A DNA stretch of 64,000 nt from Escherichia coli (GTDB taxonomy: Bacteria; Pseudomonadota; Gammaproteobacteria; Enterobacterales; Enterobacteriaceae), in NCBI RefSeq assembly GCF_003334785.1, contig NZ_QOWV01000012.1. The stretch is one strand, 5' to 3'. How positions within the stretch are numbered: position 1 is the stretch's first letter; every line of letters starts with the position of its first letter. Positions 20,871 to 21,303 of this stretch are shown piece by piece. The notes under the pieces were generated by a model. It worked only from the letters and a program-made list of their open reading frames with translations. It was not told the DNA's origin and made no database searches. The position numbers and the translations under genes are program-made.

Positions 20871-20908
20871 AAAATCAAGGAAGAAACAAGAAAGGAAGTA
20901 AAGATAAT

Positions 20909-20995
20909 TGGTGCGAGGGGGGGGACTTGAACCCCCACGTCCGTAAGGACACTAACACCTGAAGCTAGCGCGTCTACCAATTCCGCCACCTTCGC
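20909..20995 (-). tRNA. leuQ: tRNA-Leu (anticodon CAG)
   Basis: Reverse complement reads GCGAAGGTGGCGGAATTGGTAGACGCGCTAGCTTCAGGTGTTAGTGTCCTTACGGACGTGGGGGTTCAAGTCCCCCCCCTCGCACCA, the E. coli tRNA-Leu(CAG) with encoded CCA; single copy here. Confidence 0.95.
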
Positions 20996-21136
20996 ATACC
21001 ATCAATTCTTAAAAAGAATTGCTACCACGGAGGCGCATTCTAGTGGTTTTCAGCTTTTCGTCAATAGTTAATTATCGCCGGAGGTGTAATTGCTGAAAAA
21101 ATGTCCATCAGGAAACTAACGTGCAGGTTTGGTAGT

Positions 21137-21290
21137 TTTGTAGGTCGGATAAGGCGTTCACGCCGCATCCGACACGGTATTTGGGTGCAGATGCCAGATG
21201 CGACGCGGGCGCGTCTTATCTGGCCTACGAAGGGCTAACGTGCAGGTTTTGTAGGTCGGATAAGGCGTTCACGCCGCATCCGACACGGTA
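21137..21290. repeat. REP/BIME palindromic elements upstream of tRNA-Leu
   Basis: Two copies of GTAGGTCGGATAAGGCGTTCACGCCGCATCCGAC flanking an inverted GCCAGATGCGACGCGGGCGCGTCTTATCTGGCCTAC unit. Confidence 0.85.
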
Positions 21291-21303
21291 TTCGGCGAGA
21301 TAA

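Follow-up and report, generated by a model that had tools for sequence, protein, structure and literature searches.

A single leucine tRNA gene lies between yjjZ and rsmC in the 64,000-nucleotide stretch of Escherichia coli DNA analyzed here (the window). The features of this interval are listed below, with positions counted from the first nucleotide of the window.

20634..20870, plus strand: yjjZ, encoding a DUF1435 protein, the convergent neighbor on the 3′ side of the tRNA gene (ORF list)
20871..20908, minus strand: 38-bp 3′ trailer of the tRNA, identical to the sequence downstream of leuV (alignment with MG1655)
20909..20995, minus strand: tRNA-Leu(CAG), 87 nt with an encoded CCA end (ARAGORN; Rfam RF00005; 87/87 identity to leuQ/leuV)
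20996..21036, minus strand: leader of the leuQ-side type, from the −10 hexamer to the 5′ end of the mature tRNA (alignment)
21037..21064, minus strand: sigma-70 promoter with −35 TTGACG (21064..21059), a 16-nt spacer and −10 TAGAAT (21042..21037) (promoter scan)
21116..21295, no strand assigned: REP/BIME cluster separating the promoter from rsmC (direct repeats D1, 50 nt in two copies, and D2)
21304..22335, minus strand: rsmC, encoding the 16S rRNA m2G1207 methyltransferase, the upstream neighbor (343-aa ORF)

The gene at 20909..20995 was the only tRNA gene detected in the window by ARAGORN, which assigned it to the minus strand as a tRNA-Leu with anticodon CAG. Rfam RF00005 matched positions 20912..20995 of the same strand with a score of 48.5 bits (E = 1.2e-8; gathering score, 29), and all 87 positions were the same as in leuQ and leuV of both MG1655 and FDAARGOS_1337. 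Chance is of no concern for the identity of this gene because of the 87/87 match to K-12 leuQ/leuV. The run of eight C residues, a known indel hotspot of leuQPV-type genes (PMC8510543), was intact, and the gene terminated in CACCA. Judged by its sequence, this is an intact, genuine tRNA-Leu(CAG), namely, tRNA-Leu1 of the leuQ/leuV/leuT type, and its identity to the K-12 genes (PMC2190699) predicts expression, maturation by RNase P and charging with leucine. In another assembly, JBJYMY010000001.1 (L016 2777..3096), all three tRNA-Leu copies were 86 nt in length, suggesting the loss of one base in each of the eight-C runs; this is probably a long-read homopolymer error. The neighboring genes are annotated in identical loci of relatives, yjjZ as WP_001403902.1 (Z1323CEC0018 and FDAARGOS_1337) and rsmC as WP_001272345.1. 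The flank of the tRNA on the yjjZ side begins ATTATCTTTACTTCC.

The intergenic region was aligned with those of AVS0750 (one tRNA copy), Z1323CEC0018 (two copies) and MG1655 (three copies). The operon promoter, which had 10 of 12 consensus matches in the promoter scan, was invariant in the window and these three genomes. The leader, likewise the same in the window and the one-, two- and three-copy genomes, contains a G+C-rich GCGCCTCC immediately 3′ of the −10 hexamer and ends in GAATTGATGGTAT next to the tRNA. A terminator scan found no terminator-like hairpin after the tRNA on the minus strand. The leuQPV operon is described as being without a recognizable Rho-independent terminator (PMC2190699), and termination in the window operon is presumed to be Rho dependent. 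Relative to MG1655, the REP cluster of the window contained an extra unit of 41 bp, visible as an alignment gap. The REP-derived Rfam family naRNA4 matched positions 21143..21225 with 70.3 bits (gathering score, 59.5), most likely reflecting similarity to REP sequences rather than a dedicated sRNA gene. An initial annotation had placed one 87-nt tRNA-Leu(CAG) gene at 20909..20995 on the minus strand of the yjjZ/rsmC interval, about 38 bp from yjjZ and with REP elements on the promoter side. ARAGORN, Rfam and the ORF list returned the same gene and interval; the distance agrees with the end of yjjZ at 20870 and the tRNA 3′ end at 20909, and the direct repeats and the naRNA4 match located the REP elements at 21116..21295. 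Another tandem array in the window, at 28916..29403 in the yjjV-yjjW intergenic region, is made up of REP-like palindromes of the BIME type, in a 101-bp unit that recurs 4.8 times (94% matches). This array has the same length in FDAARGOS_1337 and is the apparent break site of contig DABAWM010000017.1.

At the same site, MG1655 carries leuV, leuP and leuQ. In the window, a single tRNA connects the promoter and leader of the leuQ side with the 3′ flank of the leuV side. Relative to MG1655, exactly 236 bp is absent, made up of leuP, another tRNA copy and both spacers (28 and 34 bp), or one 121-bp unit plus one 115-bp unit. The spacer between leuQ and leuP (QP) is AAAACCACGTTGATATTGCTCGCACTGG and that between leuP and leuV (PV) is AACGAGGCGATATCAAAAAAAGTAAGATGACTGT; no 14-mer of either was found anywhere in the 64-kb window. 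The window and K-12 leuQPV thus share the yjjZ/rsmC site, the promoter hexamers, the leader, the 3′ flank and the leuQ/leuV tRNA sequence but differ in that the window has one gene rather than three, lacks leuP and both spacers and has the extra 41-bp REP unit. The arrangement that defines the triplet, three genes with spacers of 28 and 34 bp, was absent from the window, whereas its site, promoter and leader were present. In K-12 as well as in the relatives of the window, leuP departs from leuQ and leuV at one position of the variable arm, C48T; the variant stretch carrying T48 is GGTGTTAGTGTTCTTACGG, with examples in MG1655 (L003 2201..2287) and in a relative (L005 21332..21418; both in positions of the extracted loci). 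Because of C48T, reads derived from leuP are a diagnostic marker for collapse of the array. The initial annotation had proposed the comparison with MG1655, which found the triplet at the K-12 site and the single gene in the window. Its description of the K-12 genes as three identical tandem copies held for the number of copies but not for their identity, since leuP carries C48T. In K-12, the primary leuQPV transcript is cleaved by RNase P to pre-tRNAs, and three quarters of tRNA-Leu1 derives from this operon (PMC2190699).

The copy number at this locus was surveyed in 5,426 complete RefSeq E. coli genomes. A single-copy query of 147 nt, composed of leader, tRNA and 3′ flank, was used with a threshold of E ≤ 1e-60, which can be reached only by an uninterrupted single-copy arrangement. 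This arrangement was detected in 425 of the 5,426 genomes (7.8%). An inter-tRNA junction was present in 4,999 of the 5,426, and both junctions were absent from 427, in agreement with the 425 single-copy genomes. One or two copies were found in 509 genomes; subtraction of the 425 gave an estimate of about 80 two-copy genomes (∼1.5%), leaving about 4,900 (∼90%) with three or more. The junction searches were not used for separating two from three copies because two-copy genomes retaining only the PV spacer can already satisfy the 80% coverage threshold of the QP query (85/106 nt). One of the 425 single-copy matches was on a record typed as a plasmid, and a 294-kb record, NZ_CP170379.1, contained tRNA-Leu(CAG) without the chromosomal flanks; both may be mislabeled fragments of the chromosome.

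When 60 evenly spaced single-copy genomes were inspected, approximately three quarters were O157:H7 or O157:H7-like strains (EDL933, Sakai, 86-24 and others). The Sakai locus was checked directly and contained one tRNA-Leu between rsmC and yjjZ. The other single-copy genomes belonged to at least 10 non-O157 strains or groups, including the AVS series, GF75/GF131, TUM11356, the 2020S05-013 series and IPCEC48. One, three and five copies were found among other public assemblies, and five tandem tRNA-Leu(CAG) genes were observed in the complete genome CP049179.1 (GCA_013147205.1; extracted locus L011 2776..3334). The existence of two-copy and five-copy genomes indicates that the array both expands and contracts. 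The locus therefore behaves as a variable tandem array. Its single-copy form is a common and established natural allele that public genomes already show, and one copy is the normal state in O157:H7. McDonald et al. (2015; PMC4539685) make no mention of leu gene loss in O157:H7. The O157:H7 allele (Sakai and EDL933) shares its architecture and 147/147 nt with the window but is of independent origin, with approximately 2% divergence across the locus, the haplotype of the window being that of three-copy strains.

The nearest complete genomes were approximately 99.98% identical to the window over 25 kb. A 25,000-bp query spanned 25,236 to 25,237 bp in these genomes, indicating three copies, except in Z1323CEC0018, in which a span of 25,121 bp indicated two copies. 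No RefSeq complete genome matched the window as a single uninterrupted alignment. The window was colinear with FDAARGOS_1337 over 64 kb, with 14 SNPs and no indel besides that at the tRNA locus. Around six SNPs were private to the window, three of which change a protein: HpaD A115T, OpgB F353L and SerB A67T (positions 2541, 13213 and 38807, respectively). OpgB F353L was rare and served as a clade marker, being found in nine public contigs, all from assemblies with contigs of ≤200 kb. Proteins with SerB A67T and YjtD V43 were widespread (625 and 628 blocks, respectively), and the clade contigs were absent from the returned matches. The literature search turned up no publication about assembly QOWV01. 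Strain A14, otherwise near-identical to the window, has a different segment (yjiA, btsT, brnTA and an IS1 pseudogene) opposite the hpa operon of the window. This operon for 4-hydroxyphenylacetate catabolism (hpaI-hpaG and hpaR) lies upstream of tsr in positions 1..6000, and a burst of SNPs in tsr of A14 suggests that a boundary of recombination or replacement lies near 6400..7530.

Contig AARZGY010000011.1 was 100.000% identical to positions 1978..24033 of the window, including the private SNPs of that stretch, and is regarded as coming from a clone-mate. This contig carries the full leuQ-leuP(C48T)-leuV triplet, and hence the difference in copy number arose, or was created, within the clone. 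In two other assemblies of the clade, contig coordinates, rather than the sequence itself, suggest one copy. The distance from the contig end to opgB in DABQXL010000015.1 was exactly 236 bp shorter than in the three-copy AARZGY010000011.1. The end of DABAWM010000017.1 would lie 52 nt inside the 101-bp array if one copy is present and in the yjjV coding sequence if three are present. At the opposite end, the putative one-copy contigs and the contig of the window all terminated 75,977 to 76,034 bp from opgB, whereas the three-copy AARZGY010000011.1 reads through that point to 86,161 bp from opgB. DABCPM010000021.1 was left out, as its end, 6,860 bp from opgB, is not readily explained by any copy number. 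The shared contig end and the apparent single copy suggest an inherited state of a small sub-clade.

The single copy is probably the result of a real and very recent deletion in a small sub-clade of the lineage of the window. We infer that the deletion occurred in the organism rather than in the assembly, as the remainder of the window shows no sign of collapse and the imperfect 101-bp array is present at full length. Collapse during assembly is the less probable explanation, possible but on balance doubtful. The organism would then have three genes, and a short-read assembler would have joined the promoter, one tRNA and the 3′ flank, dropping the loop of spacer, leuP and spacer, which would have become a tiny contig or been lost. 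Several observations are compatible with such an event: the window comes from a draft contig, the clone-mate with 100% identity over 22 kb has three copies, and the nearest complete genomes all have three copies, apart from one with two. As in known collapsed tandem repeats of short-read assemblies, the 87-nt unit exceeds many assembly k-mers in length and exactly whole units are missing; the case differs in that one copy also seems to be the state of the sister assemblies. Moreover, every k-mer along the single-copy path, for k of up to 90, was also present in the three-copy clone-mate, so a graph assembler working at shorter k could yield this path as an artifact. Logan contigs of the clade (k = 31) also break at the window tRNA, indicating a repeat in the graph, but this break is uninformative on copy number because leuT, located elsewhere, shares the tRNA sequence. 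Against these points, at least four other drafts resolved three copies at this locus (L010, L013, L014 and L020), the other tandem array of the window (28916..29403) was not collapsed, and real single-copy alleles are common among finished genomes. The two clade assemblies that look single copy by coordinates (DABQXL and DABAWM) share a contig end with the contig of the window, and collapse would require the same artifact to recur in just those clade assemblies. We take the DAB- and AA-prefixed records to be SKESA assemblies made by NCBI, and SKESA tends to break at repeats instead of collapsing them. A control with the complete relatives of another single-copy draft (L008) was uninformative on the reliability of drafts, the best relative being only 99.3% identical. 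The initial annotation had offered a real difference in copy number or an assembly collapse as the two alternatives and had proposed that read depth equal to the flanks, together with one copy in finished genomes of close relatives, would confirm the former. The pair of alternatives was the right one; on the finished genomes the proposed test failed, since the nearest finished genomes have three copies or, in one instance, two, and it is the coordinates of the sister drafts that lean toward a real difference.

Two further origins of a real single copy were considered. Import of the allele by homologous recombination, for example, from O157:H7 or the AVS/GF groups, is very improbable. The 147-nt core is 100% identical to that of O157:H7 genomes, as would be expected of an import, but the flanks are 100.000% identical over 22 kb to the three-copy clone-mate and the window is approximately 99.98% identical over 64 kb to three-copy relatives, whereas single-copy lineages are only 98.1 to 99.4% identical across the locus. 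The REP structure is also that of the two- and three-copy relatives, and neither a recombination tract nor a tract of donor-like SNPs was visible around 20.9 kb; import was rejected on the flanking haplotype. An ancestral single copy, with the triplet produced by duplication in other lineages, is scarcely credible either. Tandem arrays can grow by duplication, as in the five-copy CP049179.1, and nothing more specific favors this origin. Approximately 90% of complete E. coli genomes have at least three copies, in which the QP and PV spacers are distinct and conserved and leuP bears C48T, and the triplet is also present in the relatives of the window, among them the clone-mate with 100% identity. 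An ancestral single copy was therefore rejected on the species-wide distribution.

A deletion of this type could have been produced by unequal homologous recombination or by replication slippage between the 87-bp direct repeats of leuQ and leuV. The product would be the leuQ promoter and leader, one tRNA and the leuV 3′ flank, with a loss of 236 bp. The junction, whether of recombination or of collapse, would lie somewhere inside the 87-nt tRNA, with no finer placement. Similar changes are known from other tandem tRNA arrays. In arrays such as glyVXY of E. coli, whole units are gained or lost between identical direct repeats and an effect on dosage is expected (PMC4539685; PMC9981150); Pseudomonas fluorescens SBW25 offers another example, the duplication of tRNA genes (Ayan et al. 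2020, cited in PMC9981150). The window differs from both in being a contraction, at the genes for a major isoacceptor, in one draft assembly.

If the deletion is real, each firing of the promoter would yield one tRNA instead of three. K-12 has a further tRNA-Leu gene with the CAG anticodon, leuT, outside the leuQPV site; if leuT is present elsewhere in this organism as in K-12, then the number of CAG-anticodon genes would be two instead of four. The usual gene dosage would thus be halved for the tRNA decoding CUG, the most used leucine codon. A deletion of all three genes (ΔleuVPQ) has been constructed and studied in MG1655 (PMC9981150); in that study, losing tRNA redundancy generally carried a cost in rich medium but was neutral or of benefit in poor medium (Raval et al., PMC9981150). 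By analogy, growth of an organism with the contracted array may be slightly slower in rich medium, with a possible advantage in poor medium (PMC9981150). A broader and rather speculative view, which we consider improbable, is that leuQPV is a fast, selectable dosage locus that has changed repeatedly and independently between one or two and five copies, with O157:H7 apparently fixed at one copy and the sub-clade of the window representing a fresh contraction. On this view, contractions could be favored where growth is slow or nutrients are poor, as the tRNA redundancy experiments of Raval et al. predict (PMC9981150).

For surveys of tRNA genes, the copy number of this 87-bp array is untrustworthy in drafts assembled with k ≤ 90, and copies should be counted from reads or in long-read assemblies. 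The distribution among complete genomes provides a baseline for the species of approximately 7.8% with one copy, 1.5% with two and 90% with three or more, up to five. The feature in the window is an ordinary tRNA gene, a known operon in a known and common copy number state. The finding matters little, and the single copy is variation of a known kind whether real or collapsed.
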